From NCBI GenBank assembly GCA_963812745.1, contig CAWEWE010000004.1, forward strand, positions 332,734 through 396,733: a DNA stretch of 64,000 nt. The letters run 5' to 3'. This document shows, one piece after another, positions 2,288 through 56,430 of the stretch (position 1 is its first letter; every line of letters begins with the position of its first letter). The notes under the pieces were generated by a model. It had not been told where the DNA came from and searched no databases. It worked only from the letters and a program-made list of their open reading frames with translations. The position numbers and the translations under genes were made by a program. This stretch comes from an uncultured Chloroflexia bacterium (GTDB lineage Bacteria > Chloroflexota > Limnocylindria > Limnocylindrales > CSP1-4).

Positions 2288-3462
2288 CCGACGACGCGGT
2301 CGACGCCGCGCTTCTCCAACGCCCGGGCGATGATCAGCCGCTGGATCTCGGACGTGCCCTCCCAGATCCGGTCGACCCTGAGCTCGCGGAAGAACCGCTC
2401 GGCGGCCGTCTCGCGCATGTAGCCGCGACCGCCGAACACCTGCACGACGCGGTCGGCGCAACGGAACGCCGCTTCCGACGCGAACAGCTTGGCGAGCGAC
2501 GCCTTGGCGTGGACGACCTTCGGGTCGGCGCCCTCGTCGGCGAGGACAGCGGCCTCGCGCGTCAGCAGCCGGGCGGCCGACGCGTCGGCGGCAGAGTCGG
2601 CCAGCGGGAAGGACACGCCCTGGAAATCGAAGATGCGCTCGCCGAACTGGACCCGCTCGACCGCCCAGTCGACGGCCTCGGTCAGCAGCCGCTCCATCGC
2701 GCCGGTGCAGCGGGCGCCGATGTGGATCCGCTCCTCGACGAACCACTCGTTGGTGAGCTCATCGGCCTGGCCGACACCACCGAGGACCGCGGAGGCATGG
2801 ACCCGGACCCCGTCGAGCACGAACTGCGGATGGCGGTCCGCGAAGGTGTGCATGTAGTCGGGATCGTGCTTGAGGGTCACGCCCGGCGTGTCGTAGTCGA
2901 CCAGGAACAGCGTCGGCCGGCGGTCGTCGCCGTCGATGACGACGCAATGGAAGATCATGAAGTCGGTCTCGTCGGGCGGGCCGGTCACGAACCACTTCTC
3001 GCCGTCGAGGACGTACTCGCCGGTGTCGGCATCGCGCACGGCGGTCGCCTCGAGTGCCCGGGCGTCGGAGCCGGCGCCCGGCTCGGTGACCGCGTAGGCG
3101 CCGAACCGCTCGCCACGGAGGCTCGGCTCGAGATATCGCCGGCGCTGGTCGTCGTCGCAGTGCAGCAGGGCGTTGTAGGCGCCCGGGATGTACGACCAGA
3201 GGCCGCCGGTCGACTGACCGAGCTGCTCGTGGACGAGGACCTGCTCGAGCATCGACCAGCCCTGGCCGCCGACCTCGACCGGCAGCGACCCGCCGACGAG
3301 CCCGGCCTCGATCGATGCGTCGCGGATGGCCGCGCGCTGCTCCGCAGGGATCCGACCGCCCGCGCGCTCGAACTCGACCTCGACCGGCTGGAGGACGTCG
3401 CGTGTGAATCGACGCGCGCGCTCCTGGAGCTTGAGCTGGTCCGGGCTCAGCGTCAGGTCCAC
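2284..3462 (-). CDS. acyl-CoA dehydrogenase
   Basis: C-terminal ACAD motifs (RIWEGTSEIQRLIIARAL, YAVTEPGAGSD). A GTG start (VDLTLSPDQLKLQERARRF) lies at 3460-3462, with an alternative GTG at 3480. The track ORF 2284..4773 fuses it artefactually with the upstream surface-protein frame. Confidence 0.8.
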   Translation of the reverse strand: MDLTLSPDQLKLQERARRFTRDVLQPVEVEFERAGGRIPAEQRAAIRDASIEAGLVGGSLPVEVGGQGWSMLEQVLVHEQLGQSTGGLWSYIPGAYNALLHCDDDQRRRYLEPSLRGERFGAYAVTEPGAGSDARALEATAVRDADTGEYVLDGEKWFVTGPPDETDFMIFHCVVIDGDDRRPTLFLVDYDTPGVTLKHDPDYMHTFADRHPQFVLDGVRVHASAVLGGVGQADELTNEWFVEERIHIGARCTGAMERLLTEAVDWAVERVQFGERIFDFQGVSFPLADSAADASAARLLTREAAVLADEGADPKVVHAKASLAKLFASEAAFRCADRVVQVFGGRGYMRETAAERFFRELRVDRIWEGTSEIQRLIIARALEKRGVDRVVG

Positions 3463-3530
3463 GCGCCAAGGATGGCGCACAGGATGGGCCGGCTCCGCGC
3501 GTCGTCGCAGGGCGCGGGACGGCGGACATG

Positions 3531-3561
3531 GAAGAGGGCCGGTCGGCGACCGGCCCTCTTC
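3531..3561. terminator. perfect 14-bp inverted repeat hairpin GAAGAGGGCCGGTC-ggc-GACCGGCCCTCTTC
   Basis: Seen directly in the sequence. It sits between the 3' end of the giant surface-protein gene and the ACAD start. A possible alternative adhesin stop (tca 3579-3581) lies 18 nt before it. Confidence 0.5.
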
Positions 3562-4719
3562 CTGCTCGGCTGCGCTGTTCAGCCGGCGGGGAGGATGTCC
3601 CAGAACGCCTTGTTGGCGATCGACTTGCCGAGTCTTCGGGTCGGCAGATGTGCCCGGGGTGAAGACGCCGCTGTCACCGCCTTCGTTGAAGGCGGCTGCT
3701 TGCGAGGCCGCAAGCTTGATCGCGTTCAGGTTGGTCCCGCAGAACGCGGTCTCCCACGCTGCGAATGATCCGGCGCTCGGCGACGAGCCGAATGCCGAGG
3801 CGTTGAGTTCCGCTGCGATCAGCTGCTGGAGCAGCCGCATCCGAGCTTGATCGATCGAGGAGCGCTTGACGCCCGTGCTCGTCTTGGAGATGTCGGACCA
3901 GAAGGCGCCCATCAACTTGGCCGTTCGTGTCGATGACAGGCGACCGCAAAGGGTGATGTCACCGACGGCGATCGCCACACCCGGGAAGGTGTGCCCACCA
4001 GCAGTCCCACCGAACCAGGCGGCCACGGCGAGGTCGAAGTGCGTCGCCCAGAAGCCTTGTGTCCGGGTCGTGCCGGGACCGGTGTTCTCGAAAACGCAGG
4101 TCACCGTGTCGCCGCTCTTCAAGACGATCGTTGCTGTCTGCGTCGCGAGGTTGCCGAGGCCGGTGCTGCCACCGCTACCGGTGACCGCGCAGTTCAACGG
4201 AGTATTCGGATCCGAGGAGCCCCCGATCCCAGTCAGCACCCAGCCAGCCGGCACGAGCTCGGTGGCGGTGTAGGTGCCGGCCTTCAGGACCTGGGTGTTC
4301 GAGTTGCTTCCGGCTTGACCCGTCAGGTTGAAATCGGCGTAGGCCGGGTTCGTGCCGCCGGCGGCGTCGAAGTTGAACGTCACGGCAGCGCCCGCAGGCT
4401 TGGTGATCTTCTGGATGATGATCGTGCCGCGCTTGTTATTCGTGAACGTGCAGACGATGGTCTCGCCGGCGTCCACGTCCAGGCTGGCCACTGTGGTGAC
4501 GACTGCATCGGCGTCACCGGTGCAGACGATGCTCGCGAGGTCCCAGCCTGTGGGCACGGTCTCGCTGATGGTCTTCGGCCCGAACTCGGTCGGGTCGAGC
4601 GTGTCGATGTGGCTAGACGGCACGAGCAACGAGATCGGATCCGTGTCCAAGTTCTCAGCGACCAGGCCGGTCCCGGTCACCGCGAACTCGAAGTCCTGCG
4701 GATCGCTCGCCGGGTCAGT

Positions 4720-6720
4720 CACCTTCTGGTAGGTGACGGTGGCGTGCTTGGTGTTCTCGAAGGTGCACACCACGGTCTCGCCGGCGTCGATGTCGAGGGT
4801 GGCCGTACGGTGCCGAGCTCGGTGAAGTCGGCGTCACCGGTGCAGTCGAGGGCGGTCAGCGACCAGCCGGCGACGGCCGACTCGATGACGGTATGGGCGC
4901 CGAGCTGGGCGGCGTTCAGGTTGAACGTGTCCTGGCTGGGTAGGGTGGCGTCGCCGGCGTCGGTGTCGAGGTCGAGGTCGGCCGGCACACCGGCGCCGGT
5001 CAGGTCGAAGTCGAAGTCCTGCGGATCGGAGGCCGGGTCGGTGACCTTGACCACCGTCAGGCTGGCGTGCTTGGTGTTCGTGAAGGTGCAGACCACGGTC
5101 TCGCCGGCGTCGATGTCGAGGGTGGCCGTACGGTGCCGAGCTCGGTGAAGTCGGCCCGGCACCGGTGCAGTCGAGGGCGGTCAGCGACCAGCCGGCGACG
5201 GCCGACTCGATGACGGTATGGGCGCCCGAGCTGGGCGGCGTTCAGGTTGAACGTGTCCTGGCTGGGCAGGGTGGCGTCGCCGGCGTCGGTGTCGAGGTCG
5301 AGGTCGGCCGGCACACCGGCACCGGTCAGGTCGAAGTCGAAGTCCTGCGGATCGGAGGCCGGGTCGGTGACCTTGACCACCGTCAGGCTGGCGTGCTTGG
5401 TGTTCGTGAAGGTGCAGACCACGGTCTCGCCGGCGTCGATGTCGAGGGTGGCCGTACGTGCCGAGCTCGGTGAAGTCGGCGTCACCGGTGCAGTCGAGAT
5501 CGGTCAGCGACCAGCCGGCGACGGCCGACTCGCTGACGGTATGGGCGCCCAGCTGGGCGGCGTTCAGGTTGAACGTGTCCTGGCTGGGCAGGGTGGCGTT
5601 GCCGGCGTCGGTGTCGAGGTCGAGGTCGGCCGGCACACCGGCACCGGTCAGGTCGAAGTCGAAGTCCTGCGGATCGGAGGCCGGGACGGTGTCCTTGACC
5701 ACCGTCAGGCTGGCGTGCTTGGTGTTCGTCGAAGGTGCAGACCACGGTCTCGCCGGCGTCGATGTCGAGGGTGGCCGTACTGCCGAGCTCGGTGAAGTCG
5801 GCGTCACCGGTGCAGTCGAGATCGGTCAGCGACCAGCCGGCGACGGCCGACTCGATGACGGTATGGGCGCCCAGCTGGGCGGCGTTCAGGTTGAACGTGT
5901 CCTGGCTGGGCAGGGTGGCGTTGCCGGCGTCGGTGTCGAGGTCGAGGTCGGCCGGCACACCGGCACCGGTCAGGTCGAAGTCGAAGTCCTGCGGATCGGA
6001 GGCCGGGACGGTCTCCTTGACCACCGTCAGGCTGGCGTGCTTGGTGTTCTCGAAGGTGCACACCACGGTCTCGCCGGCGTCGATGTCGAGGGTGGCCGTA
6101 CTGCCGAGCTCGGTGAAGTCGGCGTCACCGGTGCAGTCGAGATCGGTCAGCGACCAGCCGGCGACGGCCGACTCGCTGACGGTATGGGCGCCCAGCTGGG
6201 CGGCGTTCAGGTTGAACGTGTCCTGGCTGGGTAGGGTGGCGTTGCCGGCGTCGGTGTCGAGGTCGAGGTCGGCCGGCACACCGGCACCGGTCAGGTCGAA
6301 GTCGAAGTCCTGCGGATCGGAGGCCGGGACGGTCTCCTTGACCACCGTCAGGCTGGCGTGCTTGGTGTTCTCGAAGGTGCACACCACGGTCTCGCCGGCG
6401 TCGATGTCGAGGGTGGCCGTACTGCCGAGCTCGGTGAAGTCGGCGTCACCGGTGCAGTCGAGATCGGTCAGCGACCAGCCGGCGACGGCCGACTCGCTGA
6501 CGGTATGGGCGCCCAGCTGGGCGGCGTTCAGGTTGAACGTGTCCTGGCTGGGTAGGGTGGCGTTGCCGGCGTCGGTGTCGAGGTCGAGGTCGGCCGTCAC
6601 ACCGGCACCGGTCAGGTCGAAGTCGAAGTCCTGCGGATCGGAGGCCGGGACGGTCTCCTTGACCACCGTCAGGCTGGCGTGCTTGGTGTTCTCGAAGGTG
6701 CACACGATGGTGTCACCGGC
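4720..6720. repeat. six tandem copies of a 321-323 bp coding repeat (107-aa domain) inside the surface-protein gene
   Basis: The motif gatgtcgagggtggccgta recurs at about 4789, 5112, 5438, 5761, 6082 and 6403. The three upstream copies carry 1-nt indels (ggccgtacggtgccgag / ggccgtacgtgccgag versus ggccgtactgccgag in intact copies). Confidence 0.8.
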
Positions 6721-8060
6721 GGCGACCGCGAAGCTGACCCCGTTGGTGATCGGCGTCTCGGTGACGTTGGTGCAGCTGACGCTGGTCAAGCTCCAGCCGG
6801 CGGGCACGTTCTCGACGATCGTCTTGGTCCCGAGCTGGCCCGCGGTCAGCGTGATCACGGTGGTGTTGGCTGTCGTGCCGTCATCGACGAGGTCGATGTC
6901 GCCCGGCATCCCCGACCCGCTGGTGTCGAAGTCGAAGCTGGTCGAGCCTTCGGGAGTGGCCTGCTTGACGACGGTGACCGTGGCGTCCTGGACGTCGATG
7001 AAGGTGCACACGATCGTGTCACCGGCGGCGACCGCAAAGCTGACACCGTCGGTGATCGCCGTCTCGGTGACACCGGTGCAGTCGACGCCGGTCAGCGACC
7101 AGCCGCTCGGCACCGTCTCGGTGATGGTCTTGGTGCCGGCCAGCTGGGCGGCGGTCAGCGTGAACACGATGTCGTTGTCGCCGGGGCCGGCGCCGTCATC
7201 GACGAGGTCGATGTCGGGCCCGATCCCGGCGCCTGTGGCGTCGAAGTCGAAGCTGGTGGCGCCTTCGGGGGTGGCCTCCTTGACCACCGTGACCGTGGCG
7301 TCCTGGCTGTCGTTGAAGGTGCACACGATCGCGTCACCGGCGGCGACCGCGAAGCTGACCCCGTCCGTGATCGGCGTCTCGGTGACATTGGTGCAGCTGA
7401 CGCTGGTCAGTGACCAGCCGCTCGGCACCGTCTCGGTGATGGTCTTGGTGCCGGCCAGCTGGGCGGCGGTCAGCGTGAAGACGATGTCATTGTCGCCGGG
7501 GCCGGCACCGTCATCCACGAGGTCGAAGTCGGCGCTGATGCCGGTCCCGGTGCCGTCGAAGTCGAAGCTCGTGGCGCCCTCGGGGGTGGCCTCCTTGACC
7601 ACCGTGACCGTGGCGTCCTGGCTGTCGTTGAAGGTGCACACGATGGTCGCCCCGGCAACGACCGCGAAGCTGACACCATTGGTGATGGCCGTTTCGGTGA
7701 CACCGGTGCAATCGACGCTGGTCAGGCTCCATCCGGTGGGCACGTTCTCGGTGATCGTCTTGGTCCCGAGCTCCGCGGCGGTCAACGTGAACGACACGTC
7801 GTTGTCGCCCGGGCCGGCGCCGTCATCGACGAGATCGATGTCGGCGTGATTCCGGTGCCGGTGGCATCGAAGTCGAAGCTGGTGGCGCCTTCGGGAGTGG
7901 CCTGCTTGACCACCGTGACCGTGGCACCTTGCGTGTTATTGAACGTGCAAGTGATCGTCTCGCCGTTGTCGAGGTCGAGGGCGGTATTCACCTCTGTGTC
8001 ACCCAGCGAGCTCACGCACGAGACGCTGGACAGCGTCCAGCCGGCCACGGCGTTCTCGGT
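6721..8060. repeat. four to five tandem copies of a ~310 bp coding repeat (second ~100-aa domain type)
   Basis: aaggtgcacacgat recurs at about 6696, 7003, 7317, 7631 and 7935. Encoded units are ..VCTFNDSQDATVTVVKEATPEGATSFDFDATG... Confidence 0.7.
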
Positions 8061-32048: not shown

Positions 32049-32447
32049 ATGATCGCCGAATTCCGGGGGTTCCTGCTCAGGACGAATGCGCTGGCGCTGG
32101 CCATCGGGGTGATCATCGGCGGCGCGCTCGGCACGGTCATCAACTCGCTGGTCAACGACATCATCATGCCGCCCATCGGCCTCGCCCTGGGCGGCGTGGA
32201 CTTCTCGTCGCTGAAGGTCGTCCTCAAGGCCGCGGTCGGCGGTGATCCGGCCACCGAGGTGGCGATCCGCTGGGGCGCCTTCATCAACGCAGTAATCGCG
32301 TTCATCGCGATCGCGCTGGTGGTGTGGCAGCTCAGCCGGACGTTCGTCAACGAGGAACCGCCGACCGAGGTGAAGACCTGCCCGTTCTGCAAGGAGGCCA
32401 ACGCGCCTGACGCGACACGCTGCAAGGCCTGCACGAGCGAGATCTAG
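32049..32447 (+). CDS. mscL: large-conductance mechanosensitive channel MscL with C-terminal CxxC...CxxC zinc-ribbon-like tail
   Basis: MscL signature FRGFLLRTNALALAIGVIIGGALGTVINSLVNDIIMPPIG. The C-terminus ends KTCPFCKEANAPDATRCKACTSEI. Confidence 0.85.
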   Translation: MIAEFRGFLLRTNALALAIGVIIGGALGTVINSLVNDIIMPPIGLALGGVDFSSLKVVLKAAVGGDPATEVAIRWGAFINAVIAFIAIALVVWQLSRTFVNEEPPTEVKTCPFCKEANAPDATRCKACTSEI

Positions 32448-32479
32448 GCCGCCGGTTCCGCGGGCCGCTTCGGCGCCGC

Positions 32480-32684
32480 GGAACATCTGATGTTCCGATC
32501 GACGCCTGGGCGGCGCCTCGAGCGGCGGTTCTTGGCTTTTGGAACCTCACGATGTTCCAATCAGCGGCTGAAGTTCGCGAAGATCGGTCCTCGTTCGCCG
32601 TTTGGAACCTCCAGTGTGTTCCAACCCGCCGAGCAGCCATGGCGATAAGGCGGTTCGATCGCCGGTCGGAACATAGGGTGTTCC
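32480..32684. repeat. array of four regularly spaced (61-64 bp) inverted repeats GGAAC-N7-9-GTTCC (mostly TTGGAAC...GTTCCAA)
   Basis: Site 1 (32480-32496) is GGAACATCTGATGTTCC, a perfect 17-bp palindrome. Site 2 is 32539-32560, site 3 is 32602-32624 and site 4 is 32668-32684. All lie in the 600-bp non-coding stretch between mscL and GGDEF-EAL gene 1. Confidence 0.6.
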
Positions 32685-33044
32685 AAAGGCGGCCGCCGGC
32701 GAGGTGACGATCGCTCAGTCGTCTCTCGGTTGCTCCCTGAGGTACCCATCCGGGACGACGCCCACGACCTCCATCCCGTACCGAGCCGCGATCTCCTCGA
32801 GTGCGGTTTCGTCCATCCCGGTCCGCAACCCCGCGGCCAGCTCGTCGAAGAGTCACGTCGAAGCCGCCGACGTCGATCATGCGCGCCTCGCCCGGACCGG
32901 GCACGAACGCACCATCACCGAGTCTCACGATCGAGGGCCTCCCTCCAGACGCACCGGGACGTTCGTACCGGTGATTATCGAGGGTCCGTTGGGGTACAGA
33001 TAGGTCCGCCGCAGTCTGGCGCCGCCTGGGGATGCGCGAACAGG

Positions 33045-34667
33045 ATGTCCAAGAAGCCGAGGAAGCTCCCGCGATCGTCGTCCCGAGCGATCAGCCGCCT
33101 CACCACGACCGCGTTCGTGTTCGATGTGCTCGTCGCCGTGATCGCTGTCGGGGCATCGACCGCGCTGGTCGGCGGCGCGCTGGGTCCAGGGGGAACGACC
33201 CTGGATCCGGTCGTGCTCGTCGGGGCGGCGGGCGCGACGATGGCCACCCTCGTCCTGGGCGTGCTGGCGTTCGCCACGGTGCGCATCCGCCACCACGCAG
33301 CCGTCCTCGAATCCGAGCGCTCGGATCTGCGCGAGGCCTATGACCGGGCGCGGCTGGACTCGCTCCGCGACGGGCTGACGGGACTCGGCAACCATCGAGC
33401 ATTCCAGGAAGAGCTCGACGTCCAGGTCGCGACGGCCCGGGACGAGGACGCGCCGCTGGCCCTACTCATCGTCGACGTCGACGACCTCAAGAAGATCAAC
33501 GACCGACGCGGTCACGCGGCGGGCGATGAACTGCTTCGCGCCGTCGCCCAAGTCATGCACGCGAACCTGCGGCGATCGGATCGTGCGTACCGGATCGGCG
33601 GCGACGAATTCGCATTGCTGCTGCCGGGCTGCGGTCTCGACGACGCGGCGATCATCGCCAATCACCTCCTGGCAGCGACGCTCGGCGGCCACCATGGTCG
33701 GATCGGCTCGTTCTCGGTCACCATCGGCATCTCGGCGTTCCCCACGCCGAGCTCGGATCGACAACAGCTGCTCCACCACGCCGACGCGGCGATGTACGCC
33801 GGCAAGCGCCATGGCCGGACGAAGGTGGAGCTGTTCGATCCGCGGCGCCACGGCATCGCCGACGACACCCGGACACTCGCGCAGCTGGTCGCTGCGGTCG
33901 AACGCGTGACCACGAAGGGCCAGTTGCAGGCGGTCTACCAGCCCATCTACTCGCTGCGCACTGGTGCGGTCTCGGGGTTCGAGGGCCTTGTCCGGCTCGG
34001 ACCCAACGCGGAGTTCGACGCACCGACCGCGCTGTTCGTGGCCGCCGAGGCGACCAGTCGCACGATCGAGCTCGATGTCGTCTGTGCCGAGACGGTCCTG
34101 GCCGGCGCGCGCGATCTTCGACCCGACCAGTACCTCTCGATCAACCTGTCGCCGCGGACCCTGGAGTCCGACGCGTTCAGCCCGCTCGAGGTGCTAGCCC
34201 TCGCCCGCCGCTACGGCGTCCCGCCGACCCAGCTGGTCATCGAGCTGACCGAACGCGAGGCCGTGGAGGACCTCGAGAGCCTCCGCTCGGCCGTGGCCGC
34301 ATTGCGACGCCAGGGCGTCCGCATCGCCCTCGACGACATCGGTGCCGGGAACGCCGGGTTGCGGCTGTTGAGCGAGGTCGACTTCGACATCATGAAGATC
34401 GACCTGTCGCTGGTCCGGGCGGGCGCCACGCATGAGCCGTCGGAAGCGGTGCTCCGCGCGCTCGGGAGCTTCGCTCGCCAGCGTGGCCACCAGATCGTCG
34501 CCGAAGGCATCGAGACCCCCGATCTCCTCGAGGCCGTGCTCGAGCTGAACTACGACGCCGGGCAGGGCTACCTGTTCGGGAAGCCCGGATCCACGATGGC
34601 GATGGCGGACCTCAAGCTGGTGGACCTGATCACCGGCGGCGAGGCCTCCGAGCATCCCGCGGCCTGA
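33045..34667 (+). CDS. membrane-anchored diguanylate cyclase/phosphodiesterase (2 TM + GGDEF + EAL)
   Basis: GGDEF domain (LTGLGNHRAFQEEL...DELLRAVAQ...RIGGDEFALLLPG) and EAL domain (YQPIYSL...ELTEREAVEDL...DDIGAGNAGL...QGYLFGKP). ATG at 33045; the track ORF from 32730 has an Arg-rich extension that is unlikely to be real. Confidence 0.85.
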   Translation: MSKKPRKLPRSSSRAISRLTTTAFVFDVLVAVIAVGASTALVGGALGPGGTTLDPVVLVGAAGATMATLVLGVLAFATVRIRHHAAVLESERSDLREAYDRARLDSLRDGLTGLGNHRAFQEELDVQVATARDEDAPLALLIVDVDDLKKINDRRGHAAGDELLRAVAQVMHANLRRSDRAYRIGGDEFALLLPGCGLDDAAIIANHLLAATLGGHHGRIGSFSVTIGISAFPTPSSDRQQLLHHADAAMYAGKRHGRTKVELFDPRRHGIADDTRTLAQLVAAVERVTTKGQLQAVYQPIYSLRTGAVSGFEGLVRLGPNAEFDAPTALFVAAEATSRTIELDVVCAETVLAGARDLRPDQYLSINLSPRTLESDAFSPLEVLALARRYGVPPTQLVIELTEREAVEDLESLRSAVAALRRQGVRIALDDIGAGNAGLRLLSEVDFDIMKIDLSLVRAGATHEPSEAVLRALGSFARQRGHQIVAEGIETPDLLEAVLELNYDAGQGYLFGKPGSTMAMADLKLVDLITGGEASEHPAA

Positions 34668-34680
34668 CGGGCCCTCCGGG

Positions 34681-35520
34681 TCAGGCGTCCGGGCTGGGGT
34701 AACTGCCGAGGACCCTCGTCATGGTCGTCACGCTGCGCACCTCGTCGAGGGCCGCCGCCATCGATGGGTCGGCGATGTCCCCGTCGAGGTCGATCCAGAA
34801 GACGTATTCCCACGCGCGCTCGCGGCTCGGGCGCGATTCCAGCTTGCGCATGTTCAGGCCGTGGGCAGCGATGACCCGCAGCACCGCCAGCAACGTCCCC
34901 GGCTCGTTGCGCACGGCGACGACCAGCGTGGTCCGTTGATGGTCCGGCGGCGCTACGAGCGCGGGTGGCCGTCCGTCGGCCCGCGCCAGGACGAGAAAGC
35001 GCGTCCGGTTGCCGGGCAGGTCGCCGACGTCGTCGGCCAGGATCTCGAGGCCGAACAGCGCCGCCGCGCGCGGCGAGAGGACGGCCGCGGCACCACGCTC
35101 AGCCGCGTCCGCGATGGCCTTCCCGGCACCGGCGGTGTTGTAGGTCGACAGCAGCTGCCACTGGTGCGAGCGCAGGAACGCCTCGGCCTGGCCGAGCGCC
35201 TGGATGTGCGAGTACACCCGTTCGATGTCCTCCAGCCGCTGACCGGGCAGGGCGGCGAGGCACAGCCGCACCGGGACCATCACCTCGCCGTGGATCACGA
35301 GGTCGAATTCCACGAGCAAGTCGTAATTCTCGCGGACCGTGCCGTTGATCACGTTCTCGATCGGCACGACGCCGGCCTCGGCACGCCCGTCGGTCACCGC
35401 CTCGAACACGGCGCGGAAGCTGCCGACCGCGCTGCGCGGCGCATCCCCGAACGCCGCGAGCACCGCGTCCTCGGCGAACGCGCCGGGCTCGCCGGCGTAG
35501 ACGATGGAGCTTGATGGCAT
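34681..35520 (-). CDS. pheA: prephenate dehydratase
   Basis: PDT domain with the motif TRF plus a C-terminal ACT domain (TTLVVAVRNEPGTLLAVLRVIAAHGLNMRKLESRPS). The start is MPSSSIVYAGEPGAFAE. Confidence 0.85.
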   Translation of the reverse strand: MPSSSIVYAGEPGAFAEDAVLAAFGDAPRSAVGSFRAVFEAVTDGRAEAGVVPIENVINGTVRENYDLLVEFDLVIHGEVMVPVRLCLAALPGQRLEDIERVYSHIQALGQAEAFLRSHQWQLLSTYNTAGAGKAIADAAERGAAAVLSPRAAALFGLEILADDVGDLPGNRTRFLVLARADGRPPALVAPPDHQRTTLVVAVRNEPGTLLAVLRVIAAHGLNMRKLESRPSRERAWEYVFWIDLDGDIADPSMAAALDEVRSVTTMTRVLGSYPSPDA

Positions 35521-35823
35521 GCGCGAGTGTAGGCATGCGCGGTGCTCGACCGCCCGAGGTCGCCACGGCCCCGCGATCCGGCATCGGGACCACACGGCAC
35601 CGGCCCGATGGTCCCATCGCTCCCCATACCACCAGCGTGGTGCGACCACGGGCCTCGTTGGGTACAACTCGATGACGACCCTCGAGACCTAGGACCCTGC
35701 CGCTTGCCGACTACCGACCGGGGCGCTCCGACACGACCGAACACGCGCGCGGGCAGCTCGCCAGTCGCGGGCACGCGCGGCGCATTCAGCGCAGCCATCG
35801 GCCGTGTCCCGACGCAGGTCCGT

Positions 35824-38376
35824 GTGTGGACGCTGACCCTCGTGCTCGCGGCGGCGACGGTGGTCGCCTACGCGGTCTTCCTGGTCGATCGGCCCGGTCG
35901 CGAGGTACCGGTCGCCGTCCCATGGCCGATCATCGCGATCGCGGTCGTCATCGCCGAGCTCAAGGTGGTGCAGGTCCATTTCCGCCGCGAGACCCACGCG
36001 TTCTCGTTGAGCGAGTTCCCGGCCGTGATCGGGATGTTCTTCCTGCCACCCGGGGAGTACCTGCTTGCGGTCCTCACCGGATCCGCGGTGGCGTTCGTCA
36101 TGACCGGCTCGCGATTCGTGAAACTGGCGTTCAACCTCGCGAACTACGGGCTGATCGCGGTGATCTCGATCTCGATCGTCCTGTCGATCGCCTCCCCGAC
36201 GGGGCCGCCCGGCCTTCGCGAATGGGCGGCGGCGTTCGCGGCGACCACCCTCGCCACGGTGCTCAGCTCCGTGACGATCGCCCTCGTGATCACCCTCTCG
36301 GGCGGGGCACCGCAGTTCCAGAAGCTGCCGGAGATGATCCAGTTCGGGAGCATGGTCGCGCTCGCCAACACGAGCCTGGCGTTGCTCGCCGTGACGGTCC
36401 TGTGGCTCGATCCGATCCTGCTCTGGCTGCTGGTCCTGCCGCTCGTCATGATCTTCGTCGCCTACCAGGCCTACATCTCGGAGCGCGAGAAGCACGAACG
36501 CCTGGAGCTGCTCTACGAGTCGTCGCGGATCCTGCAGCACTCCCCGGAGATCGACTCGACGCTGGTCGCCCTGCTCAGCCACGCCAGGACGATGTTCCGT
36601 GCCGAGCTCGCCGAGGTGATCCTCTATCCGCGATCGGCGGGCGCCGAGGGGCTGTGGGCCCGGTCCTGGCACGATCGCGAACCCGAGATCGCGAGCCCAG
36701 GCGACGAGACGCTGCGACAGCCGCTGCACGACCTCGTCCGATCGTCCATCGGGCCGTTCATGCACGAGACCCGTGATCACCGCGGCAGGGTCGCCCGGCA
36801 CATGGTCGGCGCGCTGCGCGGCGAGTCCGACATCATCGGCGCGCTGGTCGTCACCAACCGGCTCACGGAGGGGACGACGTTCGGGGACGACGACCTTCGC
36901 CTGCTCGAGACCCTGGCGAACCAGACGGCGGTCGCCCTCGAGAACGGACACCTCGAGCAGTCGCTCGCCGAGCTGTCGCGCCTCAAGGAGCAGCTCCGGC
37001 ACCAGGCGTATCACGACCCGCTGACCGGGCTGCCCAACCGAACGCTCTTCCTCGAGACCGTTGCGGAGCGATTGGACGGGGAAAGTCCGCGAATGCCGGT
37101 CGTGCTGTTCCTCGACCTCGACGACTTCAAGGTCGTCAACGACACGTTGGGTCACGACGCGGGCGACCGCCTGCTGTGCGAGGTTGCGGCCCGGCTGCGC
37201 ACGGTCCTCCGCACGGGAGACATCGCGGCTCGGCTCGGTGGCGACGAGTTCGCGATCCTGCTCGACGACCCGCTTGGCCTCGGTCGGGCGAGTGTCGTGG
37301 CCGACCGGATCATCGACGCGCTGCGCGCGACCTTCCCGCTCGACGGCCGCGACATCGCGATCGGCGTCAGCATCGGGATCGCCACCGGCCGGATCGGCAT
37401 CAATGCCGACGAGCTGTTGCGCGACGCAGATGTCGCGATGTACACCGCGAAGGCGACCGGCAAGAACCGGGTCACGGTGTTCGAGCCGACGATCCACGCC
37501 GCGATCGTCGCCCGCCACGAGCTGAGCGCCGAGCTGTCACGCAGCCTCGGCCGCGGCGAGCTCGATGTCTTCTACCAGCCGATCGTCGAGCTCGCGACGC
37601 GGCGGATCGTCGGCGTCGAGGCGCTGATCCGCTGGCAGCACCCGGTGCGCGGCCTCATCGGCCCCAGCGAGTTCGTGCACCTCGCCGAGGAGACCCGCCT
37701 GATCCGACCGCTCGGCCGGTGGGTCCTGCTCGAAGCGTGCCGGCAAGCCGTGGAGTGGGCAAGCACGATCCCAGACGGAGTCGAGCTGACGATGTCGGTG
37801 AACCTGTCCGCACAACAGCTCCAGGAACCGGACTTCGTCGGTGATCTGCGCGAGATCCTCGAGGACACGGGCCTGCCGCCCCACCAGCTCGTCCTCGAGA
37901 TGACCGAGACCGTGATGTTCCACGACACCCTGACCACGCTGTCGCGGCTCGAGGCCATCCGCGACCTCGGGGTGCGCATCGCGATCGACGACTTCGGGAC
38001 CGGCTACTCATCGCTGGGCTACCTGCGCCGGTTCCGCGTCGACATCCTCAAGATCGCGCGCGACTTCATCGGCCCTGCCGATCGCGAGGAGGAATGGGCG
38101 TTCGCGAGCGCGATCGTGGCGATCGGCCGCTTGCTCGGGGTGACGATGGTCGCCGAGGGGATCGAGGAACCGGGCCAGCTCGATCGCCTGATCGAGCTCG
38201 GCTGCGAGCTCGGCCAGGGCTACCTGTTCGCCCGACCGGCGCGCGCCGCCGAGATCGGCCCATTGCTGGGCGCCGAGATCGCGACGGCCACGGCGGTTCA
38301 AGGCGACACCCCCGGAGCCGACGCGTCCGATACCCGTCCCGATCATCGTCGCGCCATGGCGGTCGACCCGACCTAG
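35824..38376 (+). CDS. multi-TM sensor diguanylate cyclase/phosphodiesterase (8+ TM, GAF, GGDEF, EAL)
   Basis: N-terminal polytopic membrane region, a GAF-like segment (IGALVVTNRLTEGTTFGDDDLRLLETLANQTAVALEN), GGDEF (RLGGDEFAILL) and EAL (ELTMSVNLSAQQL...QGYLFARP). In-frame GTG near 35824; the start is uncertain. Confidence 0.8.
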   Translation: MWTLTLVLAAATVVAYAVFLVDRPGREVPVAVPWPIIAIAVVIAELKVVQVHFRRETHAFSLSEFPAVIGMFFLPPGEYLLAVLTGSAVAFVMTGSRFVKLAFNLANYGLIAVISISIVLSIASPTGPPGLREWAAAFAATTLATVLSSVTIALVITLSGGAPQFQKLPEMIQFGSMVALANTSLALLAVTVLWLDPILLWLLVLPLVMIFVAYQAYISEREKHERLELLYESSRILQHSPEIDSTLVALLSHARTMFRAELAEVILYPRSAGAEGLWARSWHDREPEIASPGDETLRQPLHDLVRSSIGPFMHETRDHRGRVARHMVGALRGESDIIGALVVTNRLTEGTTFGDDDLRLLETLANQTAVALENGHLEQSLAELSRLKEQLRHQAYHDPLTGLPNRTLFLETVAERLDGESPRMPVVLFLDLDDFKVVNDTLGHDAGDRLLCEVAARLRTVLRTGDIAARLGGDEFAILLDDPLGLGRASVVADRIIDALRATFPLDGRDIAIGVSIGIATGRIGINADELLRDADVAMYTAKATGKNRVTVFEPTIHAAIVARHELSAELSRSLGRGELDVFYQPIVELATRRIVGVEALIRWQHPVRGLIGPSEFVHLAEETRLIRPLGRWVLLEACRQAVEWASTIPDGVELTMSVNLSAQQLQEPDFVGDLREILEDTGLPPHQLVLEMTETVMFHDTLTTLSRLEAIRDLGVRIAIDDFGTGYSSLGYLRRFRVDILKIARDFIGPADREEEWAFASAIVAIGRLLGVTMVAEGIEEPGQLDRLIELGCELGQGYLFARPARAAEIGPLLGAEIATATAVQGDTPGADASDTRPDHRRAMAVDPT

Positions 38377-38393
38377 CGACCAGCGGAGGCACC

Positions 38394-38963
38394 GTGTTCA
38401 TCCTGTACTCGCTCGTCATCGGCCTCGCCCTCGGCATCGCCTTGGGCGGCCGGCCGGCGGGGCTTGCCACGCTGCGCTTCCGATGGTCGGGGCTGATGCT
38501 GACCGGGCTGCTCGTGCAGGTCGTGCTCTTCTCCGAACCGGTGACCGAGCGCGTCGGCGCCTGGGGCCCGTCGATCTATGTCGCCTCGACCGCGGCCGTC
38601 CTCGCCGCTGTGGTGGCCAATGCCTCCATCCCTGGGATGGCGATCGTGGCAGCCGGCGCGGTCAGCAACCTGGCCGCGATCGTGGCCAACGGTGGCTACA
38701 TGCCGGCCGCACGCTCGGCGCTGGCCGCCCTGGGCAAGACCGATCCCACGACCTACTCCAACAGCGCCAGCATCGAGCACCCCGCGCTCGAACCGTTGAC
38801 CGATATCTTCGCGATGCCCGCGTGGCTGCCGTTCGCGAACGTGTTCAGCGTCGGGGACATCCTCATCGCCGTGGGGGTCGCGACGACCATCGTGCTGGCG
38901 ATGCGCCGGACAGGCGGCGGGTCATCGGCGGTCGCCACGACCGGCGAGCCGCTCGCCACGTAG
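38394..38963 (+). CDS. small integral membrane protein of unknown function, immediately downstream of the GGDEF-EAL gene
   Basis: GTG at 38394 (VFILYSLVIGLALGIALGG...). There are 5-6 predicted TM segments. I recognise no catalytic motif. Confidence 0.5.
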   Translation: MFILYSLVIGLALGIALGGRPAGLATLRFRWSGLMLTGLLVQVVLFSEPVTERVGAWGPSIYVASTAAVLAAVVANASIPGMAIVAAGAVSNLAAIVANGGYMPAARSALAALGKTDPTTYSNSASIEHPALEPLTDIFAMPAWLPFANVFSVGDILIAVGVATTIVLAMRRTGGGSSAVATTGEPLAT

Positions 38964-39102
38964 GCGACCGGCCGGGTGGTTGCCACGACGCAACTCCCCC
39001 TTCCAGCGGGTCGTCGATGGTACCGAATACTCATTGGTACTGGGGTCCCGTCGCCTCACCATCGCGTGGGAGGCAACTCGTCCCCCCACTTACCGGATCG
39101 TC

Positions 39103-39190
39103 CAGGGCAAACCCGTCGCGAGGCGGGGACGCAAAGCCAGGGATCTCTCATCCGAGACCGCCCGGCTGCCGGTCCAGCGAGTGCCGAGCC
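39103..39190 (+). ncRNA. candidate c-di-GMP-I (GEMM) riboswitch
   Basis: CCAGGGCAAACC (39103-39114) is followed by a hairpin CCCGUC-GCGA-GGCGGG with a GNRA loop (39112-39127), then GACGCAAAGCC (39128-39138) and a second hairpin region. This matches the conserved core of the GEMM class I aptamer (..AGGGCAAACC..GNRA-hairpin..GGGACGCAAAGCC..). Downstream, CCUUC-GAUA-GAAGG (39189-39202) can sequester the SD GAAGGAG. Confidence 0.6.
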
Positions 39191-39210
39191 TTCGATAGAA
39201 GGAGCAACCC

Positions 39211-39300
39211 GTGAAGGCGAACCTGGCGCGCTTCACCTGGGCCCTCACGCTGCTGGCCGTCATGGCCCTGAGCGTGGGTGCGGGGATCCGGTGGCAGTAG
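39211..39300 (+). CDS. 29-aa hydrophobic, signal-peptide-like micro-ORF (MKANLARFTWALTLLAVMALSVGAGIRWQ) downstream of the riboswitch
   Basis: Strong SD GAAGGAG lies 7 nt before GTG 39211. The TAG stop (39298-39300) is followed 2 nt later by a second, out-of-frame small ORF. The two may be one secreted ~60-aa peptide if an indel is present. Confidence 0.3.
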   Translation: MKANLARFTWALTLLAVMALSVGAGIRWQ

Positions 39301-39302
39301 CC

Positions 39303-39395
39303 ATGACGACCGTCATGGCTTCGACCGACCGTGTCCTATCGATGACCTCCGGACACCCAGAGGTCGTCATCGAGTCCGGGCACCGCTGGGGCTGA
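39303..39395 (+). CDS. 30-aa small ORF MTTVMASTDRVLSMTSGHPEVVIESGHRWG
   Basis: ATG 39303, stop TGA 39393-39395, immediately followed by a terminator hairpin. It may be the continuation of the preceding peptide in a shifted frame. Confidence 0.25.
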   Translation: MTTVMASTDRVLSMTSGHPEVVIESGHRWG

Positions 39396-39417
39396 GCCCC
39401 GACGGACCGATCTCATC

Positions 39418-39446
39418 GAGGGGCGCCGGCCACGCCGGCGCCCCTC
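39418..39446. terminator. perfect 13-bp hairpin GAGGGGCGCCGGC-cac-GCCGGCGCCCCTC followed by GTTCGTTGTCC
   Basis: Seen in the sequence. It terminates the riboswitch-controlled mini-operon and lies before the convergent PadR gene. Confidence 0.5.
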
Positions 39447-39475
39447 GTTCGTTGTCCTACATCCCGGCCCGCCAG

Positions 39476-40036
39476 CTAGCGAGCCGCGCGCGCCACGATC
39501 CCTTCCCAGAAATCGACCGCCGCGCCCTCGTAGAGCAGGCCCATCCGCAGCGTCTCGCCGCGCCAGCGCTCGACCGTCCGCCCGCCCTTCGCAGGTCTGC
39601 CCGGGCGGTGCTCGAACCGCTCGTCTTCCCGGTATGCGGACAGCTTCGCGCGATGGATCGCGAGCTGCTGCTCGGCGAGACGCAGCGTGGCATCCGACGA
39701 GGCCAGATCGGCGAAGAAGAGCTGCAGGAGCCCCGGGTCGCGCAGCTCCGTCGGCACTTCGGACGGCTGGTCGAGCCACGCATCGAGGGCCGAGACACCG
39801 GCACTCGTGATCATGAAGACGCGTCGACGCCGTCCTTCGGTCTCGCGCGTCTCGGTGAGCAGGCCCATGGCCGCGAGACGGGGAGGCTCGCTGTACAGCA
39901 GGGTGTGCGGGAACGACCAGAAGTTGCCCAGCGTGGCCTGAACGTGGCGCTCGAGGTCATAGGGTGTCGACGGTCCTTCGCGTGCGAGCAGCCCGAGGAC
40001 GAGGTAGGACGTGGCGGTCAGGGTCCTGCTTGACAT
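39476..40036 (-). CDS. PadR-family transcriptional regulator
   Basis: PadR winged HTH (LTATSYLVLGLLAREGPSTPYDLERHV...LYSEPPRLAAMGLL) plus a C-terminal dimerisation region. Start at MSSRTL (alternative at 40045). Confidence 0.8.
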   Translation of the reverse strand: MSSRTLTATSYLVLGLLAREGPSTPYDLERHVQATLGNFWSFPHTLLYSEPPRLAAMGLLTETRETEGRRRRVFMITSAGVSALDAWLDQPSEVPTELRDPGLLQLFFADLASSDATLRLAEQQLAIHRAKLSAYREDERFEHRPGRPAKGGRTVERWRGETLRMGLLYEGAAVDFWEGIVARAAR

Positions 40037-40180
40037 AGTACGCATCGTACCATACGATACGAAGTATTCCGCACTGTCCACAGCGAACCAGTCGCCGGGG
40101 AAATCCAAACCCGGTGGGCATCCCGTGATGCTCGACCCTGGACCCGCTCACGCCAGCGCGGCCGCTAGCAAGGGTGGTAT

Positions 40181-40615
40181 ATGACCACGAACCTGAAGAT
40201 GATCGAGCGGATCCCGCTCGAGATCTTGAACAAGGGCGACCTTGGGCTCGTCGACGAGATCTACGCGACTGACTACGTCGAGCGCACCGGCCTGCCGGGC
40301 GTGCCGACGACTCGCGACGGTTTCAAGCAGACCGTGAAGGCGCTTCGAACGGCGTTCCCCGATCTCCACTACACGATCGATGACGCGATCGAGAGTGGCG
40401 ACCGGATCGTCCACCGCCTGACCGCCAGCGGCACCATGAAGGGTGACTTTCAGGGTATGCCTGCAACGGGCAAGCGAGCCACGTGGACCGAGATCCATAT
40501 CGGGAAGGTCGTCAATGGGCGTCTGACCGAGCACTGGGGCCTTGTCGACCAGCTTGACATGCTCGTCCAGCTCGGCGTCATTCCTGCCCCGGGTAGGACA
40601 CCCGTCGCCGTCTAG
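40181..40615 (+). CDS. SnoaL-like ester cyclase / polyketide-cyclase-fold protein (PF07366-like)
   Basis: The pattern ILNKGDLGLVDEIYATDYVER...VHRLTASGTMKGDFQGMPATGKRATWTEIHIGKVVNGRLTEHW is typical of ester cyclases. It is divergent from PadR. Confidence 0.7.
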   Translation: MTTNLKMIERIPLEILNKGDLGLVDEIYATDYVERTGLPGVPTTRDGFKQTVKALRTAFPDLHYTIDDAIESGDRIVHRLTASGTMKGDFQGMPATGKRATWTEIHIGKVVNGRLTEHWGLVDQLDMLVQLGVIPAPGRTPVAV

Positions 40616-54849: not shown

Positions 54850-56430
54850 TCAGCGCGCCTCCGCCCCGAAGCCCGAGGACCGGAAGCCCGAGCCGAACCG
54901 GAGGCCCTGGTCGCGGACCAGCTCGTCGAGGTCCACGGTCTCGGTCGACGGCCGCTCCAGCGGCACGCCGAGGAGATAGCCCTGACCGGCGCGGATGCCA
55001 AGCGACCGCACGAACTCGAGCTGCTCGACGGTCTCGATGCCCTCGGCGATGACCAGCGCGCCCCACCGGTCGGCGAGGTCCTTGAGCGTCTCGACGACCT
55101 CCTGCGACGTCGCGCGGACGACACCGCCCTGGATCAGCGAGAGATCGATCTTGACGATGTCGAACCGCAGCTGGGACAGCAGCCGCAGGCCGGCGTTGCC
55201 GGCGCCGACGTCGTCGGCCGCGATGCGCATCCCCGCGGCGCGACACGCGTCGACCGCGCGGCTGAGCCGGTCCATGTCCTCGACGGCCTCGCGCTCGGTC
55301 AGCTCGAGCACGATGCGGCCCGGATCGACGCCGTGCCGGTTCGCGAGCTGGACGAGGCCGTGGACGCTGAACTGGTCCGACTCGAGCGAGCGCGGCGAGA
55401 TGTTGAGCGTCAGGCTGCCCGGCAGCGACAGGCGGGCGAACGCGGCGATCGATGTCGTGAGGCTGGCGAGGTCGAGCTCGACGGTCCGGCCGAACGCCTC
55501 GGCCGCGGTGAACAGCTCGGTCGCGTCGGCGAAGCCGGAGCCCGGCATCGGCCGGCTGAGCGCCTCGAAGCCGCGCGGGCGGCCCGACCGCAGATCGAAG
55601 ATCGGCTGGAAGACCGTGTTGAGCGCACCAGCGGCGGCCACCTGTGCGACGAGCCCCGCCCGACCGGCGACCGAGCGCTCCATGCCGGGCGAGCCGTGGC
55701 GCTCGGGCTCGAAGATCGAGACGCACGTGCGGCCGTGCTTCTTGCCGTATGCCAGCGCCGCATCCGCCTCGCGATAGAGCGTGGCCCGATCGGGTGCGGT
55801 GCCGGGTGCCGCGGCGATGCCCACCGTGAACGACCACGGCTGCATCGGCGCCCCGTCCCGTCTGCGGCGATCATCCACGCCGCGCTCCAGCACCGTCGCC
55901 AGGATCCGGCGCATCGCCAGGTAGGCGCCATCGGCATCCACACCGGGCATCAGCACCGCGAACTCGTCGCCACCGATGCGGAAGACCTGGTCGCCGCGGC
56001 GCAGGCCGGCTGTCAGCACGCCCGCGATACCGACCAGCACGCGGTCGCCGCCGGCGTGGCCCTCGGCCTCGTTGACCTTGCCGAAATCGTCGAGGTCGAG
56101 GATGGCCAGCGAGAGTCGGCTGTTGTAGCGGGTAGAACCGACCCACTGGCGCTCGAGCTCTTCCTGGAACGCGCGATGGTTGCCGAGACCGGTCAGGGCG
56201 TCGCGCAGCGACTCGGCGCGCGCTCGGGTGTAGGCGTCCTCGAGGACGACCCGTGCACGGTCCAGCCGTTCGGCCGGCTCCAGGATCCGCTTCGCGAGCC
56301 AGACCGTGAGTCCGCCGAGCGCGAGCGAGAGCGCCGCGATCCCGGCGGTCGGCAGGAGGATCGACGCACCGTCACCGATGCTGAGCGAGTAGATGACCGG
56401 TGTGGCCAGCGCGACCGGGATCGCGAACAT
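54850..56430 (-). CDS. membrane-anchored GGDEF-EAL protein, close paralog of the 33045 gene (N-terminus probably extends upstream of 56430)
   Basis: LTGLGNHRAFQEELERQ, RIGGDEFAVLMPG, and EAL motifs (FQPIFDL, ELTEREAVEDM, DDVGAGNAGL, QGYLLGVP). In-frame sequence upstream of the annotated Met encodes another TM segment (LFLALIT-MFAIPVALATPVIYSL). Confidence 0.8.
   Translation of the reverse strand: MFAIPVALATPVIYSLSIGDGASILLPTAGIAALSLALGGLTVWLAKRILEPAERLDRARVVLEDAYTRARAESLRDALTGLGNHRAFQEELERQWVGSTRYNSRLSLAILDLDDFGKVNEAEGHAGGDRVLVGIAGVLTAGLRRGDQVFRIGGDEFAVLMPGVDADGAYLAMRRILATVLERGVDDRRRRDGAPMQPWSFTVGIAAAPGTAPDRATLYREADAALAYGKKHGRTCVSIFEPERHGSPGMERSVAGRAGLVAQVAAAGALNTVFQPIFDLRSGRPRGFEALSRPMPGSGFADATELFTAAEAFGRTVELDLASLTTSIAAFARLSLPGSLTLNISPRSLESDQFSVHGLVQLANRHGVDPGRIVLELTEREAVEDMDRLSRAVDACRAAGMRIAADDVGAGNAGLRLLSQLRFDIVKIDLSLIQGGVVRATSQEVVETLKDLADRWGALVIAEGIETVEQLEFVRSLGIRAGQGYLLGVPLERPSTETVDLDELVRDQGLRFGSGFRSSGFGAEAR

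Follow-up and report, generated by a model that had tools for sequence, protein, structure and literature searches.

A 64,000-nucleotide (nt) stretch of contig CAWEWE010000004.1 from the metagenome-assembled genome of an uncultured Chloroflexia bacterium (Limnocylindria), referred to here as the window, has a G+C content of 69% and carries genes for the turnover of cyclic di-GMP (c-di-GMP) next to a c-di-GMP riboswitch. The gene map combines Pfam matches with the genes called on an identical contig, ENA ERZ25039588:contig_5600 (Table 1). An operon encoding a membrane-bound GGDEF-EAL enzyme (termed E) and a DUF5317 membrane protein is followed on the same strand by the riboswitch, two very short open reading frames (ORF1 and ORF2) and an intrinsic-terminator-like hairpin. 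An earlier note, made from the letters of this DNA, had described a c-di-GMP signalling island of about 7 kb, in which two GGDEF-EAL sensors flank pheA, a small membrane protein and the riboswitch, and had added a third GGDEF-EAL gene nearby and a giant adhesin as a possible output. Judging from the comparisons described below, the conserved core is narrower than this island, and consists of the E-DUF5317 operon and a self-terminated riboswitch-ORF1-ORF2 unit.

Table 1 Features of the E-DUF5317-riboswitch-peptide locus, followed by neighbouring genes, in window coordinates (aa, amino acids; TM, transmembrane helices; SD, Shine-Dalgarno sequence; RBS, ribosome-binding site).
Feature	Position	Strand	Details
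Enzyme E (GGDEF-EAL #2)	35704-38376	+	890 aa; Pfam GGDEF 2.9e-42, EAL 1.6e-71
DUF5317 membrane protein	38394-38963	+	189 aa; Pfam PF17248
Conserved leader and/or promoter region	38964-39091	+	Upstream sequences of 54 units, aligned on the aptamer
Riboswitch	39092-39176 with extended P1 (Rfam: 39097-39174)	+	Rfam RF03167
Expression platform	39177-39236	+	SD hairpin 39184-39197, GUG hairpin 39211-39236
ORF1	39211-39300	+	29 aa, GTG start, RBS GAAGGAG
ORF2	39304-39396	+	30 aa; start within conserved hairpin 39301-39318
Intrinsic-terminator-like hairpin + UUCGUUGU	39417-39453 (gene map: 39417-39447)	+	Terminator scan; 14 bp, 13 G-C
MscL	ends 32447	+	Pfam and gene call
GGDEF-EAL #1	33045-34667	+	540 aa, 2-3 N-terminal TM (hydropathy); Pfam GGDEF 1.4e-39, EAL 1.2e-48
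pheA (prephenate dehydratase, PDT + ACT)	34681-35520	-	Pfam, gene call
PadR, convergent to the peptide unit	39476-40108	-	Gene map
GGDEF-EAL #3	54850-56430	-	526 aa, between ilvB and leuC

Both membrane GGDEF-EAL proteins reported within the 7 kb are present, and it is E that has the polytopic membrane region and GAF sensor: Pfam and hydropathy give it an architecture of about seven TM, GAF, GGDEF and EAL. In all three enzymes of the window (E, #1 and #3), an RxxD I-site lies five residues ahead of an intact GGDEF, which, along with DxLT/N and D-x-D-F-K-x-x-N-D motifs, is the active-site and I-site arrangement of GGDEF domains (PF00990), and the catalytic set of EAL domains (PF00563) is retained (QPI, E-x-L-x-R, N, E-x-T-E, DD, K, EGIE and QGY). 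Since the GGDEF and EAL residues are kept in all three, the domain search and active-site inspection that the earlier note had called for do not reveal domains that are degenerate everywhere. The motifs of E are RTGD-IAARL-GGDEF, EAL, EMTE, DDFGTGYSS, KIA, EGIE and QGY, so that every element of the EAL set, loop 6 included, is found in it. Enzyme #1 has RRSD-RAYRI-GGDEF, EGL in place of EAL, ELTE and a degenerate loop 6 (DDIGAGNAG), and enzyme #3 has RRGD-QVFRI-GGDEF, NE replacing ND, and a similarly degenerate loop 6 (DDVGAGNAG). By these motifs E would be the best preserved of the three, with cyclase, I-site and phosphodiesterase motifs apparently intact, and phosphodiesterase activity is less certain for #1 and #3 than for E. 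The sole deviation in E, KIA for the canonical KID, is common to nearly all of its orthologs. Across about 50 of these, the RxxD-GGDEF, EAL, ExTE, DDFGTGYSS, EGIE and QG[YF] motifs are retained, with RxxD..GGDEF found in 44 of the 45 complete sequences. E is ~50% identical to the GGDEF-EAL structure of MorA (PDB 4RNH, 'Motility regulator'; E-value 9e-103). No NCBIfam equivalog scored above cut-off for any of the three enzymes, and a Pfam search with the N-terminal membrane domain of E, run to an E-value of 10, gave noise alone; a relationship of this domain to DUF5317 or MASE9 was considered and rejected (hhalign probability 0.2%, no Pfam match). The third enzyme exists as had been claimed, but is not a close relative: with 46% identity to #1 and 31% to E, it is a paralog of #1, though not a close one.

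The GTG start codon of the DUF5317 gene lies 17 nt past the stop codon of E and has GGAGG in front of it. The protein matches PF17248 with 89.2 bits against a cut-off of 25, and a protein search returned 4043 homologs. Although the close adjacency to the second enzyme noted earlier is borne out, the six TM helices are not: the AlphaFold (AF2) model, with a predicted local distance difference test (pLDDT) score of 91.5, has about five TM helices rather than a plain six-helix bundle, and contains a conserved, mostly non-helical segment (residues 99-152) with NGGxMP and P-x-ANVFSxGD motifs. Polar residues conserved in the alignment are Q42, N76, N92, N99, N123, D137, N149, S152 and D155. An identity as signal peptidase II (LspA fold, Asp dyad) was considered, the match to that family (Peptidase_A8) being 17 bits against a cut-off of 25 (E-value 0.007); this resemblance is not supported, because a Foldseek search of the model against the PDB gave no match at E-values of 0.001 or below. 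A full-text literature search found no paper mentioning DUF5317. Among representatives of DUF5317 clusters formed at 50% identity, which were also examined, P0171, P0191 and P0231 have DUF5317 fused with major facilitator superfamily transporter domains.

The riboswitch, previously a GEMM candidate, is supported by family assignment, covariation and canonical ligand contacts alike. RF03167 (c-di-GMP-I-GGC) matches with 65.1 bits against a gathering score of 59 (E-value 4e-13) and is the sole Rfam family found in the 64-kb window; a sub-threshold match to BjrC68 at 39402-39453 (20 bits against a gathering score of 39) is simply the terminator hairpin. The aptamer comprises P1 (GGAUCG/CGGUCC), P2 with the GNRA loop GCGA, and P3. 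A covariance model built from seven orthologous aptamers was searched against 80 species-representative Chloroflexota (Limnocylindria-type) loci with DUF5317, and found 56 aptamers in 52 of them. In the alignment of all 56, compensatory change was seen in 16 of 25 pairs, and 93.6% of paired cells could pair, compared with 31-54% when the partners were slid; none of 500 shuffles reached the observed values. By these data the aptamer is a real structure, a three-way junction of P1, P2 and P3.

Three segments of the aptamer, CAG-G-GCAAACC, GACGC-A-AAGCC and G-C-CG, are invariant in 56/56. They place G20 at position 39106 of the window, A47 at 39133 and C92 at 39169, with a G20-A47 spacing of 27 nt, as in Vc2 and Vc1. 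In Vc2, these three nucleotides contact c-di-GMP (PMC4744006; PMC5888326). The RF03167 variant resembles the window aptamer closely in P3 and in junction sequence, and the match lies above the gathering score. Its consensus, however, reads GACGC-G-AAG, and GACGC-A-AAG is found in the window and in 56/56 relatives, so that A stands throughout at position 47 in place of the G that defines the variant. Given the canonical G20, A47 and C92, the 'GGC variant' label is misleading, and reflects overall sequence similarity and not the variant-defining base. By its ligand contacts, the window aptamer is a canonical c-di-GMP-I aptamer, the conserved nucleotides suggesting that it binds c-di-GMP. The GGC of the family name presumably refers to G, G and C at positions 20, 47 and 92, which agrees with the Rfam consensus line; RF03167, which we take to be a candidate variant class of unknown ligand, reportedly goes back to Weinberg et al. 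2017, PNAS 114:E2077.

Between the DUF5317 stop codon and the aptamer lie 128 nt that are conserved in blocks in about 50 loci. These blocks are a hairpin (GGUUGCC..GCAAC) with CUCCCCC, a GGTAC-N8-YCATNG element and a TANNNT-like element (TAGCGT/TACGGT); a covarying hairpin of the GAGGAC..GUCCUC type stands just 5' of P1. The leader gave no match to the sigma-70 consensus, and an extracytoplasmic function (ECF)-like promoter, GCAAC-N17-CGTC, was rejected as it fits the window and not the orthologs. Downstream of the aptamer, a short hairpin, CCUUC-GAUA-GAAGG, has the SD in its 3' strand and covaries across loci (CCUUC/GAAGG, GACUC/GAGUC, GCUUC/GAAGC, CUGCUC/GAGUAG), and fold predictions place the GUG start codon inside a stem, GUGAAGGCG-AACCUGG-CGCGCUUCAC. 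The first 26 nt of ORF1, GUGAAGGCGAACCUGGCGCGCUUCAC, coincide with this stem and are nearly invariant at synonymous sites of codons 1-8 (Ala3 is GCG in 38/38, Leu5 CTG in 52/54, Arg7 CGC in 47/52 and the start GUG in 51/54), whereas for the same amino acids at later ORF1 codons the top codon accounts for 38-50% of use, the background for the Ala, Leu and Arg codons being about 0.45-0.5. A terminator scan of the window found no terminator between aptamer and ORF1. With SD and GUG both in conserved hairpins and no terminator ahead of ORF1, control most likely acts at translation initiation. Within the same 26 nt, CCUGG occurs twice and could pair with the two copies of CCAGG in the core of the aptamer. 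RNAalifold proposed long-range pairings (J1/2 GUCCAGG with ORF1 CCUGGGC; the P1 5' strand with GAUCCGG), which were rejected, as their columns are invariant or do not covary, and W10 is not conserved.

ORF1 begins 34 nt past the aptamer in the window and encodes a 29-aa micropeptide, MKANLARFTWALTLLAVMALSVGAGIRWQ, with a single TM by hydropathy and a C-terminus reading GAGIRWQ. An ORF1 follows 54/54 complete aptamers, at a distance of 22-37 nt and with a length of 28-35 aa, and has the consensus MKANLARFTwAlaLLASMALTlGAGMRWx. Residues G23, A24, G25, R27 and W28 are invariant, and codons 11-27 vary synonymously; the codons behind the invariant residues include GGC/GGA/GGT, GCC/GCG/GCA/GCT and CGG/CGC. 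Because the residues are invariant while the codons vary, ORF1 would be a translated peptide under selection. ORF2, whose AUG lies 3 nt past the ORF1 stop codon, encodes a 30-aa peptide, MTTVMASTDRVLSMTSGHPEVVIESGHRWG, ending ESGHRWG. It is present and in frame in 52 of 54 units despite indels, with lengths of 10-34 aa, and its spacing from ORF1 ranges from a 4-nt overlap to +7 nt, with 32 nt in one locus (L031; L numbers denote loci and P numbers cluster representatives). The C-terminus is [AS]G[HQ]RW in 45/52 and QQRW in the others, followed by 0-8 residues (mostly 0-2). About 19 of the 52 ORF2 sequences are TM peptides, for example MTRMLKAQAFRVLLVLSALASSALVLEAGQRWK; in the clade of the window the N-terminal part has turned polar and the tail has been retained. 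The hairpin at the ORF2 start keeps its pairing through A-U, G-U and G-C changes and, together with the 3-nt gap, suggests that translation of ORF2 is coupled to that of ORF1. Taken as a whole, the pattern of substitutions indicates purifying selection on the peptides encoded by ORF1 and ORF2, and the two share a conserved [AS]-G-x-R-W motif at their C-terminal ends. Neither has a Pfam or NCBIfam family match, and gene callers skip most of the peptide ORFs, calling one in just 3 of the 7 close loci. The terminator hairpin, conserved in the alignment of close relatives, closes the riboswitch-peptide unit as an RNA of ~360 nt with its own terminator.

Across the 80 Chloroflexota loci, an E ortholog and the riboswitch were found together in 50, neither was found in 28, the riboswitch alone in 2 and E alone in none (Fisher p=1.5e-19, for loci that share ancestry and are not phylogenetically independent). 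Among close relatives (68-81% DUF5317 identity), E, DUF5317, riboswitch and peptides are kept while the flanks change; in L005, for example, leuCD lies upstream, and a GGDEF-EAL gene and ilvBNC lie downstream. Gene order also varies. The riboswitch-peptide unit stands between E and DUF5317 in L028, L038 and L060, the order is DUF5317, riboswitch-peptides, E in L031, and E is divergent from DUF5317-riboswitch in L017. Whatever the order, an equivalent hairpin closes the peptide unit as a terminator of its own. Four loci carry a second riboswitch-ORF1-ORF2 unit in tandem, ~550-1260 nt from the other (L045:8701-9328, L088:8689-9399, L027:8705-9363 and L080:2595-3940). These comparisons indicate one conserved module of E, DUF5317, riboswitch and peptides, whose linkage has survived rearrangement. 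The circuit of local c-di-GMP genes envisaged by the earlier note is thus supported for these four parts, linked in 50/80 loci, and is not supported for #1, pheA or the third paralog. Both pheA and #1 occur in some close relatives, but pheA adjacency is limited to L009, L010, L012, L035 and L071, and #1 adjoins the module in the closest relatives only, which is the pattern expected from inherited synteny; the third paralog sits in a leu/ilv neighbourhood. A ...AG-x-RW peptide gene is also found 3' of DUF5317 in 6 of the 28 loci that have neither riboswitch nor enzyme (L021, L026, L044, L063, L074 and L086). In two riboswitch-less Chloroflexota loci, L042 and L070, a divergent membrane-protein ORF adjoins DUF5317 upstream. 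One locus (L056:7303-8806) has two tandem DUF5317 genes and then a riboswitch-peptide unit, with leuCD upstream, ilvB downstream and no GGDEF-EAL gene within 8 kb.

Beyond this clade, a metagenome sample of 80 further distant DUF5317 homologs was analysed, 65 of which had enough upstream sequence to be assessed. A same-strand gene for a c-di-GMP enzyme ended within 250 nt upstream of DUF5317 in 52 of the 65, and encoded an HD-GYP protein in 35, a (GGDEF-)EAL protein in 16 and a GGDEF protein in 1. The HD-GYP genes of the distant loci carry HDxGK in 38/41 and GYP in 41/41. Where the contig extends far enough upstream of an HD-GYP operon, peptides ending (S/L)GA-x-x-(K/R)-W precede it in most cases, at times in tandem pairs; the peptide of L091, for example, ends ...VAGHKWG. 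That locus (L091:2214-4301) exemplifies the HD-GYP/DUF5317 arrangement among L091-L171, and has an intact MASE9-HD-GYP gene. In a low-GC organism, 7 nt separate a MASE9-HD-GYP gene from the distant DUF5317 gene that follows it (35% identity), and upstream of this pair is a 31-aa ORF, MRKWGKVLPVVFKVAVVLSLVLTSVAGHKWG, which has a promoter (TTGACA-N18-TAGAAT) and a terminator. Searches with our own covariance model and Rfam found no riboswitch in HD-GYP-type loci. The peptides linked to HD-GYP genes had no Pfam or NCBIfam match, and none of their homologs in the protein collection is named; a search with one of 48 aa returned only 20 close relatives, all unnamed. Among the cluster representatives, P0147 is a DUF5317-GAF-GGDEF fusion, and its contig has a 29-aa ORF, MATAKSFLLRVCVLASFVLVLAAPFRWNS (...APFRWNS), directly upstream, with its own terminator and no riboswitch. 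The same fusion with a preceding 29-aa ...APFRWNS gene is found at L089:1765-3658 and also at L152; at the L089 fusion locus, the GGTAC-N8-TCATAG block of riboswitch-unit leaders is present without a riboswitch. Together, these loci show that DUF5317 and the GA-x-x-(R/K)-W peptides belong to a wider partnership with c-di-GMP turnover enzymes of three kinds, GGDEF-EAL, HD-GYP and DUF5317-GAF-GGDEF. The trio of enzyme, DUF5317 and peptide recurs in distant bacteria and appears to be undescribed. The second peptide ORF, the GxRW motif shared by the peptide C-termini, the identity of DUF5317 and the wider enzyme partnership all go beyond what the earlier note had reported.

Several neighbouring features lie outside the module. 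A 193-aa ORF (32347-32928, - strand) between the MscL gene and #1 is also a predicted gene on the identical contig, and had neither an NCBIfam nor a Pfam match; the related locus L002 has a Cupin_2 gene in its place. The PadR/SnoaL gene pair lies 3' of the peptide unit in the window (39476-40615) and between pheA and E in L004 (2980-4136), and so moves independently of the module. The giant adhesin suggested earlier as an output is not supported as part of the circuit: it has no riboswitch near it, lies ~30 kb away and consists of apparently frame-broken SpaA-repeat ORFs. These SpaA_4 prealbumin-fold repeat ORFs (~3500-8000, - strand) contain at least nine repeats, are adhesin-like and are split over several frames, reflecting either assembly frameshifts or a pseudogene. 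One ORF of this region (2284-4833) continues without a break into a gene for an acyl-CoA dehydrogenase.

The reading we favour, and consider reasonably probable, is that peptide translation is set by c-di-GMP, and that the peptides, together with DUF5317, act on the enzyme to give feedback. The system would then have two units, namely the operon of a membrane GAF-GGDEF-EAL enzyme and DUF5317, and the ~360-nt self-terminated RNA with its c-di-GMP-I aptamer and two coupled micro-ORFs. c-di-GMP made or degraded by E would bind the aptamer and change translation of ORF1, and through coupling that of ORF2; the peptides would insert in the membrane and, with DUF5317, act on the membrane sensor domain of E, where their action may shift the balance of cyclase and phosphodiesterase activity and so close the loop. 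For the step in which c-di-GMP would set peptide translation, the comparative evidence is strong. Action of the peptides and DUF5317 on the membrane domain of E is suggested by co-occurrence, by fusions and by permutations of gene order.

Some observations weigh against this scheme or against parts of it. The window's own ORF2 is not hydrophobic. Of the 80 DUF5317 loci, 28 are without enzyme and riboswitch, and most of these have no detectable peptide; the partnership would therefore be frequent and not obligatory. In thermodynamic modelling of 54 leaders, forcing the aptamer fold left SD accessibility without consistent change, and comparison of holo-constrained with free ensembles found the start codon more occluded in 23 leaders and less occluded in 8. 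The models thus lean weakly towards start-codon occlusion in the ligand-bound fold, and the thermodynamics do not set ON versus OFF. For DUF5317, no solved relative of the fold was found in the PDB, and E has KIA instead of KID, which may affect its phosphodiesterase activity. Finally, the best-scoring Rfam model for the aptamer is the orphan GGC variant.

This last point would have most force if the aptamer sensed a ligand other than c-di-GMP, as the RF03167 assignment would imply. RF03167 is indeed the top Rfam model in 6 of 7 close loci (62.8-65.1 bits against 59), but we regard a different ligand as very improbable, as A47 occurs with G20 and C92 in 56/56 aptamers at a site where the RF03167 consensus has G, the near-identical aptamer of the L004 ortholog is assigned to RF01051 (c-di-GMP-I; 55.7 bits against a gathering score of 35), and the neighbouring genes encode c-di-GMP enzymes. 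An explanation that is harder still to credit would treat the ORFs as incidental and the unit as a non-coding RNA that binds c-di-GMP, serving as a sponge or small RNA; merRNA of Bdellovibrio is such a c-di-GMP-binding RNA. The ~360-nt length, the terminator, the lack of a conventional gene downstream, the extra conserved hairpins and the strong conservation of the opening 26 nt of ORF1 as RNA would all suit it. By contrast, codon-periodic substitutions, in-frame indels, a conserved SD and coupled start and stop codons in more than 50 loci speak for coding function, and homologous peptides occur without any riboswitch.

The other two alternatives accept the peptides as gene products and differ over what they do. 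Were the peptides c-di-GMP effectors acting on another target, DUF5317 and the enzyme would share a pathway with them without binding them and there would be no feedback loop. Such an arrangement has a precedent in Clostridioides difficile, where small membrane proteins that act on development are repressed through class I riboswitches. It would also fit a peptide unit that is invariably closed by a terminator of its own and probably has promoter-like blocks of its own. We nevertheless think it unlikely, since the same C-terminal motif accompanies DUF5317 at loci without riboswitch or enzyme, as well as in distant HD-GYP/DUF5317 operons, which points to a partnership with DUF5317 and not to a lineage-specific output. 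Less likely again is that DUF5317 processes or exports the peptides, as an intramembrane protease or a maturation or export factor working at the GA-x-x-(R/K)-W tail, with the product being the active species. Consistent with this, DUF5317 has invariant polar or acidic residues in or near the membrane (Q42, N92, N99, D137, N149, S152 and D155) and an S-x-G-D motif, its weak A8 match falls in the C-terminal, catalytic portion of signal peptidase II, and the tail is the most conserved part of the peptides even where the rest of ORF2 degenerates. Yet that match is far under the Pfam cut-off, the structure search was empty, and no other maturation genes are conserved nearby. Feedback through DUF5317 and the enzyme remains our preferred reading.

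Comparison with known systems places the module more precisely. With the c-di-GMP-I riboswitch (RF01051, Vc2) the window aptamer shares the three-helix junction, the P2 GNRA loop, G20/A47/C92 and an association with c-di-GMP genes. It differs in that its sole cargo is two micro-ORFs (29 and 10-34 aa), self-terminated and located 3' of the enzyme/DUF5317 operon, with a platform that looks translational and an RNA-level constraint on the first 26 nt of ORF1. In its GGDEF-EAL region, in its active-site motifs and in being membrane-anchored, E resembles the bifunctional MorA of Pseudomonas aeruginosa (PDB 4RNH, 4RNF); by contrast, E has a sensor of ~7 TM and GAF (with no Pfam family for the TM part), KIA for KID and DUF5317 as an operon partner. 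In the MgrB-PhoQ system of enterobacteria, a very small membrane peptide is made under the control of the pathway's output and in turn acts on the sensor. The likeness lies only in the proposed feedback logic, the interaction here being hypothetical; there is no sequence relation, and here a riboswitch would replace the transcription factor.

The closest parallel in gene arrangement is the CD1980.2 family of C. difficile, membrane-associated proteins of ~58 aa controlled by class I riboswitches (bioRxiv 10.64898/2026.06.10.731418). Its paralogs are 76-88% identical and lie downstream of Cdi1 riboswitches, they affect sporulation, and no homologs outside C. difficile are reported (bioRxiv 10.64898/2026.06.10.731418). 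Both systems have a c-di-GMP class I riboswitch with a small membrane protein as sole cargo, in multicopy or tandem units. In C. difficile, however, control is by premature termination (OFF), and the units are scattered and not tied to a c-di-GMP enzyme, whereas the units described here encode a 29-aa peptide and a second peptide, both with the GxRW tail, and are linked to genes for DUF5317 and a GGDEF-EAL protein. Membership of the window peptides in the CD1980.2 family was considered and rejected, since at 29 and 10-34 aa they are set apart from proteins described as ~58 aa long.

To our knowledge, control of the sensory membrane domains of c-di-GMP enzymes is largely unknown. The locus described here suggests that membrane peptides of 30-50 aa with a GA-x-x-(R/K)-W ending are, along with DUF5317, regular partners of these enzymes. 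We raise as a tentative possibility, somewhat short of an even chance, that DUF5317 and the GA-x-x-(R/K)-W micropeptides make up an unrecognised accessory system for membrane c-di-GMP enzymes, extending over at least high-GC Chloroflexota and one low-GC lineage, which in Limnocylindria is closed by the riboswitch into RNA-peptide feedback. For annotation, the consequence is that the Rfam label c-di-GMP-I-GGC is being given to aptamers with canonical ligand contacts. The Limnocylindria unit represents a second, independent case of a c-di-GMP riboswitch with micropeptides as its sole cargo, and would be the first such riboswitch tied directly to an enzyme that makes or breaks its ligand.

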